64,000 bases of DNA. Origin: Folioceros fuciformis. Lineage: Eukaryota. Each line of letters starts with the position of its first letter. The first letter of the stretch is position 1. The stretch spans positions 249,212 through 313,211 of the forward strand of contig JBNGIO010006370.1 in NCBI GenBank assembly GCA_049999805.1, written 5' to 3'. Of the stretch, positions 1 through 60,507 are shown one piece after another. A model generated the notes under the pieces. It was not told the DNA's origin and searched no databases. It was given only the letters and a program-made list of their open reading frames with translations. The position numbers were made by a program, and so were the translations under genes.

Positions 1-3000
1 CGAGTCCTTGTTTAGTCATTACAGGCCTGCTGTAGCCACCAACAAGGCGTTGTTAGGAGATGAGGTTACACGCACAGGACTGAGCATTCAAGGTTCCGGT
101 ACCTGTCGTTTTCGTCTTGTAGATGGCTCCATCCTTCATTTAGATGACGTTCTGCATGTTCCCCAGATGGCTAAGAATTTGGTATCTGTTAGCCAGCTCA
201 TGTCTCTTTGCCAGTACGACCTGCTGTTCACTTCGTCTGGCTATATGCTAACAAAATGAGGAGGAGATAAGCAGGTCGTAGCACATGGCATTCTGGTCCA
301 TGACTTGTATCTGCGAAGTGAAGCCTAGGAATAGTCTAGCGTCAGCTAGTCAACAATTAGGTTAAACTAAATGAGTTTTAGCTAGGGCTAGATAGCCTAA
401 TGTGAAAAGATACATAAACACAAAAAATACCTAACCGCCATGGCGTATGGCACAAGACACAAGACCTTGCTTTGTTATTACTACTACTACACACGATCAT
501 TCTCAATGCAAAAAAGATGGCTCTGATTTTTGTAGTATCAACTTGATTTTGTCAGCTTACCTGTCGACACAGCACATGTGGCCAAGTTGTCTAAGGCAGC
601 AGAGGCTAGTCTTTGGCATGCTAGACTTGGTCATGCTAATCGTGACAAGTTGATAAAGATGTCTCAACTTTCCTACTATAGAGAGCCCCTGCCAAAATGC
701 TTTAAGGATCTTCCTTCGTGTGACGCCTGTGTTATAGCCAAGCAAAAGGAGATTCCTTTTCCTAGGGCACCTGCACATCGTGCGTCCAACATTCTAAAAT
801 TAGTTCATGCAGACATATCTGGCAAGATACATATACCTAGTCTGGGAGGTGCACAGTATTATTTAACCCTCACAGATGACTACAGCCGTTACTCCTGGAC
901 TTACCCTATTGTTTTGAAGTCCGAGACTTTTACTGTGTTCCAGGAGTGTCTTGCTATGGTGCAGAGGCAAACAGGGTGCTTGCTCAAATGTCTCCGCACT
1001 GACAACGGCACAGAATTTGTGAATGCTCACTTTGACCAGTTTCTGCTTGACAGTGGTGTCATCAGGCAGTTGATTGTGCCATACACCAAGCAACAAAATG
1101 GAGTTGCTGAGCGGCGCCATCAGACCCTATTGGGCATGACAAGAAGCATGTTAGAATGGTCTGGCTTGAGCAAGACTTTCTGGGCGGAAGTAGTGGTAAC
1201 TGCTACTTACATTCTGAATCGTCTCTTGACAAGTGCAATGCCTGGGCAGACTCCCTTTGAAGTCATATGGAGGAGAAAACCCAGTCTTCTTCATCTCAGG
1301 GTGTTTGGGTCTCCAGCTTACGTTTATATCCTGCGGAGAAACGCAAGAAACTCGAAGACAAGGCAAAGCCTATGCTTTTCGTAGGATATGGCGAAGAAGC
1401 AAAGGCATACAAATTATATGACACACTTACAAAGACAGCAGTATTTGCTCGCAGTGTGACGTTCAAGGAGCTTCTTTGCCCAGCCAAGCCCTATTTTGAT
1501 TCTCTGCCACATCACCAGGAGTCCGTTACTCACATTGATCTGACGAACATGGATGATTCTTCAGGTTTTCCACAAGATGATGTTCCTTCAGAACCTGGAC
1601 AGTCCTTGGCATCCGTTCCGTCAGTTCCACCTCCAGATCAGCAGCCAGCTCATGTTCTACCTCCTGTAGCCAGACAGAACCCTGTAGCAGTTCCTGTCCC
1701 TGCTGATCTTCCCCCTCAAGATGCTTTGCCGACTGATCCTCACCCTGAAGATGCTGCAGACCATGCTGATTTTGCAGATGATGTTTCACATACGTCTCTA
1801 TCAGACTCTGCTAGTGACATCTCTGTTGTTGCTGAGGACCCCGCCATCCCTCTTGTTTTTCTTCCAGACCATGAGCCACCTCCTCGTTATCCTACTCGCC
1901 AGCGTCTGCCTCCTTCTCAGTGGGCAGAGCCTCCCTATGCCTCCATAGATTTTCGTAGACCTAGAGCCGGTGTTTCCCTTCCACAATCTTCACCCTCTCC
2001 CTTAGATGCTGGTTCCTCTGTCAAGCCAGAGCCTCGGTCTTACACAGAAGCTATCGAGGGCCCTGACAAGGATTTTTGGATTCCCTCTATTCAGGACGAG
2101 TATCAATCTCTCGTGAAAAATGATACAGGGAACTCTGTCCCCTGCCAGCAGGAAGAAAGGTGGTTAGCTGCAAATGGGTTTTCAAGCACAAATTGAACGC
2201 AGATGGTGAGATACCTAGATATAAATCTCGCCTGTGGGTTGTGGGTCTACACAAGTGCCTGGCGTGGACTTCACCGACACTTTTAGCCCTGTGGTTAAGA
2301 CTTAGTCCATCCGCATGATACTAGCCCTCGCTGCTGCCAATGCTTGGGATCTTCAGCAGATGGATGTCTGCACAACATTTTTATATGGCGAATTAGAAGA
2401 GGATATTTATATGGCTCAACCCGAGGGTTTCGCTGATCTTGACCACCCTGATTGGGTCTGTCGCCTAAAGAAAACGATCTACGGCCTTAAACAATCAGCT
2501 AGAGAGTGGTATAAAACAATTGATGCATACCTCAAGTCTATTGGTTTTCTTCAGAATCCTGTGGATGCCAATGTTTACCTCTATGCTTCAGGTGGCCGGA
2601 TTGTTATTCTGGCCTTGTATGTAGATGATGCTATATTAGCATCCAATGATCCTGGTTTGTTAGCTTGGGTCAAGCAAATGCTACATCAGAAATTTGATAT
2701 GAAGGATATCGGTTCTCTTACCTTTGTTCTTGGTGTTCAACTTGTTCGTGATTTGCCTTCCCGTACTATCATGCTCCACCAAGCCAAGTACATTCGTGAG
2801 ACCCTTCATCGTTCTCAGCTAGAGTCTGCTCATGCTGTTTCCACTCCTGGGGTCCCTGGCGCTAAACTCTCAGTTGCTCAGAGTCCTCAGACTGATGTTG
2901 ACAAACAGGATATGGCCCTTGTTCCTTATCGTCATGCTGTCGGTTGCTTGAATTATATCAGCTGTTGGACTCGTTCAGACATTTAATATGCCGTCAGTGC

Positions 3001-13794: not shown

Positions 13795-14194
13795 NNNNNN
13801 NNNNNNNNNNNNNNNNNNNNNNNNNNNNNNNNNNNNNNNNNNNNNNNNNNNNNNNNNNNNNNNNNNNNNNNNNNNNNNNNNNNNNNNNNNNNNNNNNNNN
13901 NNNNNNNNNNNNNNNNNNNNNNNNNNNNNNNNNNNNNNNNNNNNNNNNNNNNNNNNNNNNNNNNNNNNNNNNNNNNNNNNNNNNNNNNNNNNNNNNNNNN
14001 NNNNNNNNNNNNNNNNNNNNNNNNNNNNNNNNNNNNNNNNNNNNNNNNNNNNNNNNNNNNNNNNNNNNNNNNNNNNNNNNNNNNNNNNNNNNNNNNNNNN
14101 NNNNNNNNNNNNNNNNNNNNNNNNNNNNNNNNNNNNNNNNNNNNNNNNNNNNNNNNNNNNNNNNNNNNNNNNNNNNNNNNNNNNNNNNNNNNNN
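13795..14194. other. Assembly gap (400 N)
   Basis: Run of N beginning after a C-run, upstream of the WAPL ATG. Confidence 1.
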
Positions 14195-34229: not shown

Positions 34230-36146
34230 CTAGTGGCCATCGCCACAGGAACAGCATCCTTCTACAAAACGATGAACACGGTGGGCATCTCGCACTATGA
34301 TCTCACGCTTCTCCACACGAGACATGATCTTGGTTCCACTGTGACAGTCATCACACATTCGAAGATTCTTCGTCACCAGAAGAGGTGTGCCATCAGCAGT
34401 GTTGAGCAGTCCAAATGCCAAAGCAAGCTTCTCGGCATGTCCACACAGGGCATCTTCCTTCTCCTGCTCGGGCACAGGCCTGAGCACGAGGTCTGTATGT
34501 GGGACATGGCCCCCCTCCTCTTTCAGCTGCAGATTTGCACTCTTCAGTCTGGAGGAGAGGTCCTCCCTCTCCTCGCCCACCACGAATGCATGGACCTTGC
34601 TTCCCACCTCGATCCAGGCCCTAGCAGGCTTCTTGCAGGCACCTGTGAGCTTTCTCAGGTTCTCAATGCTGTCCACGTCCTGCCACCTGCCAGCATCAGC
34701 ATAGATGTTCGACATGAGGACGTAAGCACCTGCGTACTGAGGTTCCAGTAGGATGAGGCGGTCGAAGCACCGTCTGCCACGAGCCACGTCCCCGTGGCTT
34801 CTGCACGCAGTTAGCAAGGATGTCCAACCTGCTACGGTCGTTTCGAATGGGACACCCAGCAGCAGCTTTTCGGCCTCGTCCAGGTGGCCTGCCCGTGCAA
34901 GAACATCCACCAGGCAGTTGTAGTGACAGGCGGCAGGAGTGATGCCATGGTCTTCCACCATCATCCGGAAATACTGCTGACCCTGTGTCACCAGCCCCTG
35001 GTGACTGCACGCCACCAGCAGACAGATGAATGTCGCATCGTCAGGCCCCACCCCATGCTGTTGCATTTCGCTGAAACACTTGACTGCCATTTGGCCTGCG
35101 TTGTGTTGGCCGTAGCCATTCAGCAAAGCATTCCATGTAACCACATCCTTTCTGGGCAGTCTGTCGAACACTCTTCGAGCATCGTCCAGGCTTCCGCACT
35201 TGGAGTACATGTCCACCAGGCTGTTGCCCACCACCACATCCCCTTCCAGGCCCCTTTCCTGGATTTGGAAATGAAGCTGCTTCCCCTGCTGCAATGCACC
35301 AACGCTCGCACATGCTTTCAGAAGGCACGAGTAAGTGAAATTCGTGGGGGCGGTGACACCCTGATCTTGCATGCTGGCATAAAGAGCAAGGGCTTCCTGT
35401 CCAAGTCCATGCTGGGTGTACCCAGAGATCATTGCATTCCATGTCACCACATCTCTCGAGGACAAGCTATCAAACACGCGCCGAGCATCCACTAAGCTGC
35501 CACATTTTGCATACATGTCCACCAGACAGTTGGAGACGAAAACATTCGCCTCTGTCCCGTTCCCTAGAACATCAGCGTGAACGAGCTTGCCAGCCGCCAG
35601 ATCCGCAGCACCTACACATGCCTTCAGGACTGCCGAGAATACATGGTTGTCCGGCTTCAAGCTCGTCGTCTGCATCATCAGATGATACAGCTCTATGGCT
35701 CGACCAGGCTGCCCATGCTCTGCATGGGCCAAGATGACAAAGGACCATGTGAAAGTGTTCGGTGCCGCCAGCTTGTGAAACACCTCCATCGCCTCCTGCA
35801 ACCTCCCATGAGACGAATACATGCGGATGAAGTGGTTGGCCAAAAATGTGTTGGACTCATGTCCACATTTAAGAGACAGTGCATGTACGTGCCTGCCGGA
35901 TACCAGATCCTTCCTTGCAATGCACCCCTTGACCACATGGTAGAAGAGAGATGCAGGAACGAACGACACCCGTTGCACCAAGAGGTCCAATGCATCAACT
36001 GCCACCCTCGGATGCCCCTGCTCGAAGAGCTTGGTCCAGCTTTCGAGCTCCAGAGGTGCCTCACACCATGCCACCCTGCAAGATTTGAGGACGTGATCAT
36101 CGAAAGGAAAGAAATGTAACCTCACACACTTAAGCAGCCACACCAT
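34230..36146 (-). CDS. PLS-class PPR protein with a variant DYW domain (KP type: KKPA, HAEK, terminal DGH)
   Basis: Uninterrupted ORF with PLS repeats (LVDMYAKCGSL, DVVTWNAMISGY) and an E domain, then KKPARAWIEV, HAEKLALAFGL, KNLRMCDDCH and CSCGDGH*. First ATG is at 36146; upstream exons are possible. Confidence 0.93.
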   Translation of the reverse strand: MVWLLKCVRLHFFPFDDHVLKSCRVAWCEAPLELESWTKLFEQGHPRVAVDALDLLVQRVSFVPASLFYHVVKGCIARKDLVSGRHVHALSLKCGHESNTFLANHFIRMYSSHGRLQEAMEVFHKLAAPNTFTWSFVILAHAEHGQPGRAIELYHLMMQTTSLKPDNHVFSAVLKACVGAADLAAGKLVHADVLGNGTEANVFVSNCLVDMYAKCGSLVDARRVFDSLSSRDVVTWNAMISGYTQHGLGQEALALYASMQDQGVTAPTNFTYSCLLKACASVGALQQGKQLHFQIQERGLEGDVVVGNSLVDMYSKCGSLDDARRVFDRLPRKDVVTWNALLNGYGQHNAGQMAVKCFSEMQQHGVGPDDATFICLLVACSHQGLVTQGQQYFRMMVEDHGITPAACHYNCLVDVLARAGHLDEAEKLLLGVPFETTVAGWTSLLTACRSHGDVARGRRCFDRLILLEPQYAGAYVLMSNIYADAGRWQDVDSIENLRKLTGACKKPARAWIEVGSKVHAFVVGEEREDLSSRLKSANLQLKEEGGHVPHTDLVLRPVPEQEKEDALCGHAEKLALAFGLLNTADGTPLLVTKNLRMCDDCHSGTKIMSRVEKREIIVRDAHRVHRFVEGCCSCGDGH

Positions 36147-36774
36147 GCTGCCAGCCACGTTGACCCATCACCAAAACATGCAGAAAGCAGATGGGAAAGT
36201 CTTTCACCTTTCAGACACCTCAGAGCCAACAAATCCAGCTTGGTCGGACAAAATCTTTGCTGATCGAACCTCCTCCACCCACGCAGGTTGGGAATCCACC
36301 CACAAGGCCTCTCTGGTTGCGCTGTGCACGAAGTCAGGATACCTGCGGCTGCTCTGCAAGGGTGGCAACAAATCAGGCCCACTGCTGCCAAGCCCATCTC
36401 TTCCACCAGATGGCACGGCAAGCTCTACGTACCTTATTCAACCTGGTGTCCCACCACAACGCAGGGTTGGACACGAATTTCCTCCACAGCGCGTCCCGCT
36501 GACTCGGATACACTGCAAAGCAGCGTCCTCCCCATCAGATTACGAGACAAGAAAAACGACTGCAAAGAACGAAGCACTCAGCACAAGGTAGCACACTCAC
36601 CGCCTATTGTGCGTTGCTCGGCCACCGGAGCCCGCAGCGATGAGAAATATCTGGGTCTGCGGGGAAGCAGCCTTGACACGATCTTCCGGCCTCCGCCACG
36701 CTTGATCATTGTTCTGGTCTCCTGCATGCAGGAATTCCAGCCCCGACACCACCGCCTGGCATTCTGCTTCAAGT

Positions 36775-38133
36775 ATGCTGCAGACTCCGATTCCCAGCAG
36801 CCCAAAAGCCGGTGGCGCTGGGCTCCGGATGGAGGAGGTGAGCAAGGCTTTTGGCGACAGAATCGTAGTGGATCGTGTCTCTATTGCGGTGAAGCAAGGT
36901 GAAGTGGTAAGTGAAGCCCGCTGTCACGATTCCTCACGGTCCCGTTGCCCGTTGCATTACCAGTTCCCTTGCCATGGCCATACGCTTCGATTGCTAGCAG
37001 CTCGACTAGCAGCCGACTGGAATTGTGTGTATCAGGTAGGGCTCGTAGGCCCGAATGGAGCTGGCAAGAGCACTACCTTCAACCTGCTGGTGGGCAACGA
37101 GCGACCCACCAGGGGTAGAGTGTTCTGGGAGGCTCAGGACATCACGGAGCTCTCTTTGCAGCGACGAGCCAAGCTGGGAATAGGGTACATGCCACAGGTA
37201 TGGCATGCCATCCCCACCAGCAGGTTTGCTATGCGCCCATCATCTCTGCCGGTAAAGATGACCCAGATGAAGACGAACCTGTGCTGTGTTCCCACAGGAA
37301 TGCAGCGTGTTCAAGGGGCTCTCGGTCCGTGACAACATCCTGCTCATTCTGCAAGAAACCGGTGTGCCTCCAGACGAGCATGAGCAACGGCTGCAGGTGA
37401 GTTGCCTTGTCGTGTGTGTCAGCTATCACACCACCCCCTGTGGGTTTGCTCGACATGATGATGTATATTCTGCTCATGGGCCTGGCCTCTAACAGGATTT
37501 GTTGGCAGAATGCTGCCTCCAGCACGTTCACAAGACCCATGGAAGAAGCCTATCTGGAGGAGAACGTCGTAGGGCAGTAAGTTGCAGGTACTCTTTCACC
37601 CACTGCCACCGAGCTATCCTGATGCCCATGCTGACCACCGGTACCCTCACCGCCACAACTGTGCAGGAGCTAGCTCGGGTGTTGGCATCCAACTGTGCAG
37701 GAGGCCCCCCCAAGATACTCCTGCTGGACGAGCCATTTGCTGGGGTAACCATTGTCATCTGAAGAGCCTGCAGCATCGTGGCCCTGCTTTCTGCCCAACT
37801 TCTCACTCATGCTTGCAGGTTGATCCCATCGGTGTCAGCGAGATGCAGCAGCAACTACAGCGGCTCCGTGATGTCAAGGGAATGGGGATTCTCATCACCG
37901 ACCACAATGTAGGCCAGCTCCTGGTTTTGTTGTTTTTCTCCGGCTGGACGGCGGTTGTGCTCCTTGTGAGCCCACTCTCATGTGTTGTACAGGTGACTGA
38001 GACGTTGAGAATCTGCAATCGTGCCTACATGGTGCACCAAGGCCAGGTTATGGCATCTGGGGAACCACATGTGCTGTACGAGAACACCGACGTCAAGAAG
38101 TTTTACTTGGGTGACAGGTCCAACCCAACGTGA
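36775..38133 (+). CDS. lptB: LptB/YhbG-like ABC ATPase (LPS-export type) with six spliceosomal introns
   Basis: Exons ..36906, 37036-37197, 37298-37396, 37496-37576, 37667-37744, 37819-37908 and 37993-38133 join in frame. Product has GPNGAGKSTTF, LGIGYMPQECSVFKGLSVRDN, LSGGERRRAELAR, LLLDEPFAGVDPI, GMGILITDHNVTETL and VKKFYLG. The start may lie further upstream (36145). Confidence 0.88.
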
Positions 38134-58867: not shown

Positions 58868-59690
58868 CTGATGTGTCCGGAAGACATCACCCGTTGCTTG
58901 CCCCTCCTCATTGGCTAAGTGGCAGATGCCGCAGTACGTAGAAGCGATGTGTCTGAAGGAAATCAATCTCTGCCCGCCTCTCTGCGTAGACTAAGTAGCT
59001 GCACATGGCACTATAGCAGTGATGTGTCAGAAGGACATCAGACTCTGCTTGCCTCTCTGTGTAGGCTCAGTAACTGATGTAGCAGTGCAGTTGTGATGTG
59101 TCTGAGAGACGTCAGTCTCTGCCTGCTTCGCTGCATGATTGAGATTGATTTGGAAGAGGCATCAACCTCTGCTGGCCTCTGTGCAAACGCATTAGGAGTG
59201 GTGGACATCACTGAACGTATCTGAAAGACATCACTCTCTGCTTGCCCTCAAGCTCTGCGTGGGGTTTAGAAGTAATGGAGTTCTGGCAGATGTAGATACT
59301 TCGTTTGCTTCTGTGTCTGAAAGACATACAGCCGTTGTGTGCCTCCCTACTTACGCTAGTCGCCATTCGGGCATGTCTGAGTGTTGCTTGCCTCTATGCC
59401 TAGGGTTGTAGTTCTGGTGTGTGTGATAGTGATCAAATCGCTCGTTGTTTGCCTCTGTGCCTAGAATTGTAGCACTGGTGTTTGAAAGAATGATCGATGT
59501 CGCTCTTTGCTTGCCTCTGCGCCTAGGATTGCAGTACTGGTGTTCGAAAGAATGATCAATGTCGCTCTTTTCTTGCCCTGTGCCCAGGATTGTAGTGCTG
59601 ATGTTTGAAATGATCATCAATGTCGCTGTTTGCTTGCCTCCGTGCCTAGGACTGTAAGACTGATTGTTGTTGGAACGACATCACCTGTTT
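58868..59690. repeat. Degenerate tandem array: about 75-bp units grading into about 62-bp units
   Basis: Recurrent core tgtgtctgaaagacatca...tgcttgcctct(g/c)tg. The 3' block has the unit tgtttgaaagaatgatcaatgtcgctctttgcttgcctctgtgcctaggattgtagtactgg in about 5 copies. Confidence 0.8.
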
Positions 59691-59721
59691 GCGTCCAGGG
59701 TTTATCAAGGAGGAACTAGTC

Positions 59722-60507
59722 ATGGATTTCAGAGGCGCATTTTTCCTGCTGTTGGTTGTGCTACGCACTTGCAGGGCCGACGGGCCATCGCTGTCCGACC
59801 CGACACTGAAGGAGATCGCGCAGGAGCTGGTGTCGAGCGCAGAGAACTCGTCGCTGGATTGGCAAGCTCAGTACGGGTACATCGAGGACATCGGCGACGG
59901 GAGAGGCTACACGGCGGGGATCGTAGGCTTCTGCTCCGGCACGGGGGACATGGTGCAGGTGGTGGAGCTCTACGCGCAGCGGAAGCCCGACGACAACGTG
60001 CTTGCCAAGTACCTGCCGGCCCTGCGGAAGCTGGCCGCGGAAGGGAGCCCGTCTCACAAAGGGCTGGACCCCTCCTACCCTCACGACTGGCGGAAGGCGG
60101 CCAAGGACCCCGCCTTCCAGGAGGCACAGGACGACATGCGCGACAGCATTTACTTCAACCCCTCAGTCCAGCAAGGACAACAGGACGGGCTCCGTCCACT
60201 GGGACAGTTCGCGTACTACGACGCGGCTGTGATGCATGGAACCGACGGCATGGAGGCTATTCGGGGCCGCGCGCTCAGGCGAGCGGATCCGCCGGCTGCA
60301 GGTGGCGACGAGTCCGCCTGGTTGAGAGTGTATCTGGACGAGCGCAAGAAGGAGATGCGTAAGGAGGCCGCGCACGAGGACACCAGCCGCGTCGATACCG
60401 AGCAGCTCGTCTTCCTCCGCCAGAAGAACTTCGATCTCAACCTGCCGCTTCACTGGAAGGTCTACGGCGACTCGTACCATATTACGCACATTCCACATCG
60501 TCCTTGA
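59722..60507 (+). CDS. csn: Secreted chitosanase, glycoside hydrolase family 46, actinobacterial type, intronless
   Basis: Signal peptide MDFRGAFFLLLVVLRTCRA, then KEIAQELVSSAENSSLDWQAQYGYIEDIGDGRGYTAGIVGFCSGTGDM (GH46 signature with catalytic Glu and Asp), LAKYLPAL, LGQFAYYDAAVMHG, EAAHEDTSRVDTEQ and PLHWKVYGD. Confidence 0.96.
   Translation: MDFRGAFFLLLVVLRTCRADGPSLSDPTLKEIAQELVSSAENSSLDWQAQYGYIEDIGDGRGYTAGIVGFCSGTGDMVQVVELYAQRKPDDNVLAKYLPALRKLAAEGSPSHKGLDPSYPHDWRKAAKDPAFQEAQDDMRDSIYFNPSVQQGQQDGLRPLGQFAYYDAAVMHGTDGMEAIRGRALRRADPPAAGGDESAWLRVYLDERKKEMRKEAAHEDTSRVDTEQLVFLRQKNFDLNLPLHWKVYGDSYHITHIPHRP

Follow-up and report, generated by a model that had tools for sequence, protein, structure and literature searches.

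The window considered here, which is the whole stretch of 64,000 nucleotides (nt) of Folioceros fuciformis DNA, holds on its plus strand a gene of seven exons that, judged from its sequence, encodes an LptB-type ATP-binding cassette (ABC) ATPase, that is, the ATPase of the lipopolysaccharide transport (Lpt) pathway, which in bacteria powers the removal of lipopolysaccharide from the inner membrane. When the exons are spliced by their coordinates (Table 1), they give 260 codons, or 783 nt of coding sequence, with a single stop at the end. Comparison with its relatives establishes, at the level of sequence, the identity of the protein, the intactness of its gene, its affinity to cyanobacteria and the fact that it is shared among streptophytes.

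All six introns begin with GT and end with AG, interrupt the reading frame in phase 0 and measure between 74 and 129 nt, and the length of each exon is divisible by three. We aligned the gene exon by exon with E. coli LptB, three cyanobacterial LptB proteins and four streptophyte proteins, and the alignment runs through 6 of 6 exon junctions seamlessly, with no residue missing and none in excess. As these alignments read, six seamless junctions are not expected by chance. Three of the motifs straddle junctions: the Q-loop (exons 2 and 3), the Walker B motif with the D-loop (exons 5 and 6), and the H-switch (exons 6 and 7). A sequence-only reading of this DNA had described a complete ABC ATPase with a series of LptB motifs, ending in a C-terminal YLG, and had taken it for a spliced plant nuclear gene; every motif that it quoted lies exactly where it was placed, and the six GT-AG introns, the seamless junctions and the continuity with plant genes bear out the rest. 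The frame runs on through introns 1, 3 and 6 with no stop, and the length of intron 4 is also a multiple of three. Thus, gene models that leave such introns unspliced would mimic insertions, as in Closterium (see below). Intron 1 has a counterpart in none of the homologues aligned.

Table 1. Positions of the LptB-type gene, its parts and other features, counted from the first letter of the window.
Feature	Position	Strand	Description
LptB-type gene	36775..38133	+	seven exons
ATG start codon	36775..36777	+	read from sequence
Exon 1	36775..36906	+	44 codons: start, about 14 residues before the conserved core, first beta strands of the nucleotide-binding domain
Intron 1	36907..37035	+	129 nt, GT..AG, phase 0
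Exon 2	37036..37197	+	54 codons: from Walker A, whose lysine corresponds to E. coli K42, to the Q-loop glutamine
Intron 2	37198..37297	+	100 nt, GT..AG, phase 0
Exon 3	37298..37396	+	33 codons: groove region that follows the Q-loop, with the phenylalanine that corresponds to E. coli F90
Intron 3	37397..37495	+	99 nt, GT..AG, phase 0
Exon 4	37496..37576	+	27 codons: helical subdomain and ABC signature motif
Intron 4	37577..37666	+	90 nt, GT..AG, phase 0
Exon 5	37667..37744	+	26 codons: insertion of cyanobacteria and streptophytes, then Walker B with the catalytic glutamate
Intron 5	37745..37818	+	74 nt, GT..AG, phase 0
Exon 6	37819..37908	+	30 codons: D-loop through the H-switch histidine
Intron 6	37909..37992	+	84 nt, GT..AG, phase 0
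Exon 7	37993..38133	+	46 codons and stop: LptB-type C-terminal domain, YLG motif at its end
TGA stop codon	38131..38133	+	read from sequence
Intergenic stretch	36168..36774	.	shared with the PPR-DYW gene; presumed promoter and 5' untranslated region
PPR-DYW gene	34230..36167	-	divergently oriented neighbour
Ty1/copia-type retroelement	536..2986	+	integrase, RVT_2
Run of N	13795..14194		the only one in the window
Glyco_hydro_46 ORF	59650..60507	+	285 residues

A protein sequence of bacterial type is what one would expect from bacterial contamination or from an assembly artefact, but everything around the gene speaks for a different conclusion. It is contiguous with a divergently oriented PPR-DYW gene, with no N between the two, and it thus lies in gap-free sequence between plant genes. 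The GC content at third codon positions (GC3) is 0.64 in the LptB gene, near the 0.62 of the neighbouring PPR-DYW gene. In a scan for bacterial signals no sigma-70-like promoter was found around the gene, and the two terminator-like sites near it equal the number found in shuffles. Given also the six GT-AG introns with their seamless junctions, we leave a contaminant or artefact practically no credit: the window is plant nuclear DNA, and contamination is excluded.

We compared the protein with its possible families in several ways. The NCBIfam scan was applied to the exon pieces and not to the whole spliced protein, and it returns TIGR04406 (LptB) as the top family for three of five pieces (74.1, 21.2 and 69.7 bits). 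The best stretch of exon 2 covers positions 30-83 of that family (74.1 bits), the exon 4 piece has it as its top family, and exon 7 covers positions 194-236; the other two pieces, of 26 and 33 residues, match no family or, weakly, a heme transporter. On TIGR04406, for which the curated cut-off is 240 bits, the scores of five full-length streptophyte relatives lie at 275-302 bits, versus 130-165 bits on the next family, and a cyanobacterial control scores 339 bits. With a profile built from 50 bacterial LptB proteins, the window model (by which we mean the spliced protein) obtains 321 bits, the Sphagnum relative 316 and the Klebsormidium relative 338, versus 177 for LivG, 173 for LivF and 148 for MlaF.

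The individual residues agree with these scores. Among the columns that are at least 95% identical across the 50 bacterial LptB proteins, the window model retains 62 of 66, versus 36 of 65 in LivF and 41 of 65 in LivG, and its four changes are conservative or mild; such high conservation of LptB residues argues against a pseudogene. The Walker A lysine, the Q-loop glutamine, the signature, the Walker B glutamate, the D-loop and the H-switch histidine are all in place. In E. coli LptB, F90 has a role in the groove that is specific to LptB. The equivalent phenylalanine is conserved in the window protein, and the C-terminal domain aligns with that of LptB to its end. On this comparison the ATPase machinery and the LptB-specific surface are both intact.

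The test of the fold was made on the Sphagnum orthologue in place of the window protein. Against the sequences of the PDB, its top 15 matches are LptB or unnamed close relatives of LptB (205-235 bits), and the next match is ABCA3, at 153 bits. Its predicted structure, with a predicted local distance difference test score (pLDDT) of 88.4, finds LptB or LptB-like chains at ranks 1-23, with template-modelling (TM) scores of 0.86-0.95.

All of the candidate families are single-domain ABC ATPases of bacterial type, and on that ground one might assign the protein to a characterised plant ABCI class (TGD3/MlaF-type) or to the LivF/LivG type instead. However, in the careful tree of 62 rows described below, LivF and LivG of E. 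coli are separated from all LptB with support 100/99, and in a quick tree MlaF falls outside LptB as well, grouped with LivF and LivG as the outgroup. The same separation appears in the LptB profile (321 bits for the model, 148-177 for MlaF, LivF and LivG) and in the NCBIfam scan, where LivG, LivF and MlaF score far below LptB on the exon pieces. An assignment to either of those classes is, to our mind, next to impossible, and the earlier choice of LptB over LivF/G and over MlaF-type TGD3 agrees with the tree, the profile scores, the 62 of 66 invariant columns and the NCBIfam pieces alike.

We then consider who else possesses this protein. In a blastp comparison of the window model with 238 fetched proteins, the closest database proteins among the matches listed are eukaryotic: Klebsormidium nitens (63% identity over 253 residues) and Sphagnum fallax (66.5% over 239). 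Further eukaryotic matches are Mesen1 (65%), SM000026S08998 (62%), whose gene model is a fusion, and a EukProt transcript (57%); from naming conventions, we take Mesen1 to be Mesotaenium, the SM entry to be Spirogloea and Mesvir1 to be Mesostigma. Cyanobacterial LptB proteins share 56-59% identity over about 237 residues with the window model, and E. coli LptB 48% over 242.

Three protein searches were made, each scoring 8000 candidates and listing the best 120-150 matches, a depth at which absence is supported for close orthologues only, since weaker algal homologues may lie behind the cyanobacterial sequences. Among the matches listed, those labelled as eukaryotes are streptophytes only, with no homologue from a seed plant, in keeping with the earlier remark that LptB is not known from the standard angiosperm ABC inventory. 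The bacterial matches that carry an organism name are all cyanobacteria, 25 of 25 for the Sphagnum query and 14 of 14 for the Closterium query, again among the matches listed. A profile made from the streptophyte proteins and the window exons was also searched against 1.84 billion representatives. Three of its matches fell into the eukaryote clade of a FastTree tree of 142 rows, namely two from Closterium and one unnamed protein of 270 residues, and no other cluster of eukaryote type appears among the top 150 representatives of the profile search; many of the other top matches are 300-600 residues long and are placed among bacterial groups. This tree took up 80 of the 146 new representatives, that is, the first 81 by rank minus one of more than 700 residues.

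Two of the database entries carry further domains. The Spirogloea-type entry (P0003) joins a D123-domain protein to LptB, and the Chara braunii entry (P0004) joins retrotransposon domains to it; both look like fusions of gene models and not like real domain architectures.

The Klebsormidium protein and several metagenome proteins are already called LptB by automated annotation, and our literature search brought up no paper on LptB from plants or algae. Two inventories of streptophyte ABC proteins mention neither Lpt nor lipopolysaccharide in their main text (PMC9164057, PMC10513242); the protein may sit unnamed in one of their ABCI groups.

The rows of the careful tree (62 rows, 256 columns) were drawn from several sources: the window model, nine eukaryote rows, 13 of the 25 organism-named cyanobacterial matches, seven other database proteins, 30 of 80 bacterial loci, and LptB, LivF, LivG and MlaF of E. 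coli. Left out were one locus (L036, with a wrongly delimited ORF and a branch length of 10) and the very long-branched E. coli MlaF. The bacterial loci come from a genome scan with peptide patterns of the Klebsormidium protein, which gave at least 600 stretches, at least 548 of them confirmed and 80 kept. The 80 are a biased sample, mostly of Bacteroidota and Verrucomicrobiota with two contigs labelled as cyanobacteria, and they carry no ranking.

In the careful tree the ten eukaryote rows, the window model among them, form a clade with support 100/100. Its other members include Klebsormidium, Mesostigma, Mesotaenium, Spirogloea, Chara, Sphagnum and Diphasiastrum, and Closterium lies inside the same clade in the FastTree tree. 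The window model is sister to Sphagnum and Diphasiastrum (99/65), and the eukaryote rows together with the 13 named cyanobacteria and one unnamed protein are supported at 97/96. The Melainabacteria stand apart from the cyanobacteria here. The phylogeny that the sequence-only reading had called for has thus been run, with cyanobacteria and streptophyte algae included, and it puts the window model within LptB.

One row of the careful tree deserves a remark of its own. On a contig labelled Synechococcus sp. UW140 MAG (a metagenome-assembled genome; our L016), LptB falls inside a clade of Bacteroidota and Ignavibacteriota with support 100/100, and the contig is probably mis-binned. At the Prochlorococcus locus, no lptF or lptG was found in the flanks of lptB.

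An indel supports the cyanobacterial affinity independently. In photosynthetic cyanobacteria, Prochlorococcus among them, the segment from the signature helix to Walker B is longer by 3-4 residues, and all streptophyte rows have this insertion and two more residues, which makes an insertion of six. There is no insertion at this place in E. coli, Bacteroidota, Verrucomicrobiota, Elusimicrobiota, Myxococcota or Melainabacteria. Where the insertion had been called cyanobacterial from the window alone, then, the description holds for the 3-4 residues shared with photosynthetic cyanobacteria, but the two extra residues are those of the streptophyte rows. By the searches, the trees and the indel together, cyanobacteria are the closest bacterial relatives of the window protein.

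This closeness could also be explained by a recent horizontal transfer from a Nostoc-type cyanobacterial symbiont into this plant lineage, as had been suggested. The gene groups at 100/100, however, with streptophyte algae, moss (Sphagnum) and clubmoss (Diphasiastrum), and not with any cyanobacterium. A tree that forces the window model together with the Nostocales-type rows is rejected by the approximately unbiased (AU) test, with a difference in log-likelihood of 79.8 and p-AU 4.1e-5, for a group (Aulosira and its unnamed sister) that was chosen after the tree was seen. Moreover, the two extra insertion residues are common to all streptophyte rows, and of the six introns one has a position that is apparently common to Closterium. 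We regard a symbiont transfer as very improbable, and that suggestion is given up.

The evidence on Closterium concerns the age of the gene. Among three models of Closterium sp. Naga37s-1, two (P0242 and P0387) contain an insert of 69-70 residues exactly at the position of intron 4 of the window gene, and the third (P0240) is without it. By its position in the aligned proteins, the insert is probably an unspliced (retained) intron at a shared site, an effect of the annotation models. The gene would thus be old, since its clade includes Mesostigma and Klebsormidium and the Closterium insert stands at the intron 4 position.

The explanation to which we incline, with modest confidence, is that the window holds a functional nuclear LptB that came from the cyanobacterial plastid endosymbiont, descended vertically and acts by an Lpt-type mechanism, as far as its sequence allows one to say. 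Its ancestor would be a cyanobacterial lptB, most simply that of the endosymbiont itself, which would have moved into the nucleus ahead of the divergence of the streptophyte algae, acquired its spliceosomal introns there and been inherited vertically thereafter. It would have been kept in streptophyte algae, in Sphagnum (peat moss), in clubmoss and in Folioceros fuciformis, with an apparent loss in seed plants. Cyanobacterial ancestry and the presence of TGD4 and LPTD1 in plants fit, by analogy, a retained organellar export system of the Lpt kind: the literature describes both proteins as barrels of the LptD family in the outer envelope of the chloroplast (PMC12096540; bioRxiv 10.64898/2026.07.15.738633), so that plants are known to retain part of the Lpt pathway.

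Several observations weigh against this explanation, and we take first those that concern origin. No homologue from chlorophytes, red algae or glaucophytes is among the matches listed, and descent from the primary plastid would therefore require losses elsewhere. The trees, both the careful one and the FastTree, do not resolve whether the eukaryote clade lies inside the cyanobacteria or beside them. The careful tree gives a Prochlorococcus row (L070), which has a long branch and is flagged for it, a basal position in LptB, apart from the cyanobacterial group, and the FastTree puts it beside the group of cyanobacteria and eukaryotes. The tree sample contains no alphaproteobacteria. In addition, two residues depart from the pattern, the equivalent of E. 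coli R91 being a lysine and one conserved C-terminal phenylalanine a serine.

The first of these points lead to a different origin, namely one transfer event, with a free-living cyanobacterium as donor and the streptophyte ancestor as recipient, unrelated to the plastid endosymbiont. Such a transfer would account for a gene that occurs in streptophytes only among the eukaryote-labelled matches listed, and not across the Archaeplastida, for a profile search whose top 150 representatives hold no cluster of eukaryote type beyond Closterium and one unnamed protein, and for an attachment, within or beside the cyanobacteria, that the trees leave unsettled. On the other hand, absence outside the streptophytes is weakly supported, because weaker algal homologues could hide behind thousands of cyanobacterial sequences when the best 120-150 matches are listed, and envelope genes have often been lost as plastids evolved. 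We consider a free-living donor possible though doubtful.

As to function, we infer the following mechanism. Two copies of LptB would bind and hydrolyse ATP as a closed dimer, and the conserved groove, at the equivalent of E. coli F90, would move the coupling helices of two membrane proteins of the LptF/LptG type. The pair would most likely sit in the inner envelope of the plastid, where it would extract a bulky glycolipid from the membrane, and the glycolipid would be passed toward the outer envelope, where the LptD-derived barrels TGD4/LPTD1 persist.

The remaining contrary observations concern this mechanism. No LptF or LptG, and no LptC or LptA, appears among the open reading frames (ORFs) of at least 110 residues in the 64-kb window, to which this result applies. 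The window model has about 14 residues ahead of its core, which is below the length of a transit peptide and leaves plastid targeting unproven. The extensions of Mesotaenium (17 residues) and of the Closterium models (0-34, some of them acidic) likewise fall short of a transit peptide in length or differ from one in character. A link between LptB and the lipid A genes of plants is weak, since the Arabidopsis genes are described, in the passage of PMC3355754 that cites Li et al. 2011, as a mitochondrial pathway, and since lipid A genes are present in a plant group in which no LptB was seen.

Other N-termini in the family have a different character. Four homologues (Mesostigma, Sphagnum, Klebsormidium and the EukProt transcript) have extensions of 48-104 residues, and those of Mesostigma (59), Sphagnum (52) and the EukProt transcript (104) are long and rich in Ser, Thr, Ala and Arg. 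In the window an in-frame stop that ends at position 36705 leaves room for no unspliced upstream extension of exon 1. An enumeration of possible upstream exons gives 99 formal combinations of ATG, GT and AG, of which none has a consensus donor and none is otherwise supported.

These observations are also what one would expect if the ATPase had been re-used, either with a membrane partner other than LptF/LptG or outside the plastid, in the cytosol or the mitochondrion. Beyond the short or acidic N-termini of the window model, Mesotaenium and Closterium, the lack of a partner permease among the window ORFs and the mitochondrial description of the lipid A genes, re-use would agree with the situation in seed plants, where the LptD-like TGD4 is described, in the passages of PMC12096540 that deal with it, as working with the Mla-type TGD1-3 transporter and with no Lpt motor. 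But the 62 of 66 LptB-invariant columns, the groove phenylalanine and the LptB-type C-terminal domain are kept across about the whole depth of the streptophytes, and this conservation argues for an unchanged docking surface. Re-use seems to us rather unlikely, and we retain an Lpt-type mechanism as part of the explanation to which we incline.

One may take that explanation further and suppose that streptophyte algae and some non-seed land plants, Folioceros included, run a whole Lpt machine of cyanobacterial style in the plastid envelope. It would consist of an extractor of the LptB2FG type in the inner envelope and a periplasm-like bridge to TGD4/LPTD1, and its cargo on the way to the outer envelope would be a bulky glycolipid, lipid A-like or of another kind; in the seed plants the motor would have disappeared and the barrel been rewired to the TGD system of the Mla type. 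We offer this larger picture tentatively, as a conjecture that is unlikely to hold in full.

We turn briefly to the rest of the window. Its other genes include WAPL, Cpn60/TCP-1, RING, EMC7, an adenosine deaminase, a serine carboxypeptidase, three PPR genes (among them the PPR-DYW neighbour of LptB), mTERF, pieces of ATG16 and a copia-type retroelement, which is of the Ty1/copia kind and broken across several frames. The PPR-DYW neighbour of LptB is intronless and has an E motif and a DYW deaminase domain, and its terminal residues are not the canonical D-Y-W. Farther downstream, an intronless ORF matches the full profile of the Pfam family Glyco_hydro_46 (chitosanase) with an E-value of 8.6e-93, and its GC content of 0.61 and GC3 of 0.78 are above those of its plant neighbours. 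GH46 is a family of bacteria and chloroviruses. The ORF looks like a horizontally acquired gene, and our literature search found no report of a GH46 gene in bryophytes or ferns.

The window gene adds to a known family, and its interest lies chiefly in the lipid transport of the envelope in non-seed plants. Plastid envelopes descend from a Gram-negative envelope, and the Lpt pathway has so far been known in plants only by its outer-membrane relic, TGD4/LPTD1. An LptB motor in streptophyte algae, moss, clubmoss and Folioceros suggests that the inner-membrane half of the pathway survived for long in the plant lineage, and it provides a concrete gene through which the lipid transport of the envelope can be approached in such plants. 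The gene bears on whether a lipid A-like molecule is made and exported in the plastids of non-seed plants, and on how the lipid traffic of the envelope was rewired toward the seed plants. If the partners should prove absent, it would be a case of a bacterial transporter motor put to other use.

It is useful, finally, to compare the gene with the systems that are known. Cyanobacterial LptB (TIGR04406; Geitlerinema sp. PCC 7407, Aulosira, Nodosilinea) resembles the window protein in the length of its core, in its motifs, in the insertion before Walker B and in a deletion of one residue after the groove region, and forms with it a sister or inclusive clade (97/96). In contrast to it, the window gene is nuclear, has six introns and a short N-terminal extension and lacks an operon context, and its protein is longer by two residues in the insertion and by one behind the D-loop helix. 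E. coli LptB, as part of LptB2FGC (PDB 4p31, 6mhu and others), shares the catalytic residues and the groove phenylalanine with the window protein, and it superposes on the predicted fold of the Sphagnum relative with TM 0.93-0.95. It is without the insertion, however, and is encoded in an lptC-lptA-lptB operon, with its partner and cargo known, whereas the window gene is known from sequence.

The proteins annotated as LptB-like in other streptophytes are orthologues of the window protein, with 63-66% identity, a clade at 100/100 and the six-residue insertion in common. They include the 'lipopolysaccharide export system ATP-binding protein' of Klebsormidium nitens, BDL97_05G062000 of Sphagnum fallax, O6H91_09G074200 of Diphasiastrum complanatum and the proteins of Closterium spp., and at the N-terminus they extend beyond the core by 0 to 104 residues, versus about 14 in the window protein. 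The plant TGD1-2-3 transporter (Mla-type), together with the LptD-like TGD4/LPTD1, is likewise described as bacterial-type lipid transport retained in the plastid envelope, and TGD4/LPTD1 are said there to derive, as LptB does, from the Lpt pathway (PMC12096540). The ATPase of that transporter, TGD3, is of the MlaF type, unlike the window protein: on the LptB profile E. coli MlaF reaches 148 bits where the window model reaches 321, and in the tree it stands outside LptB, to which the window protein belongs.

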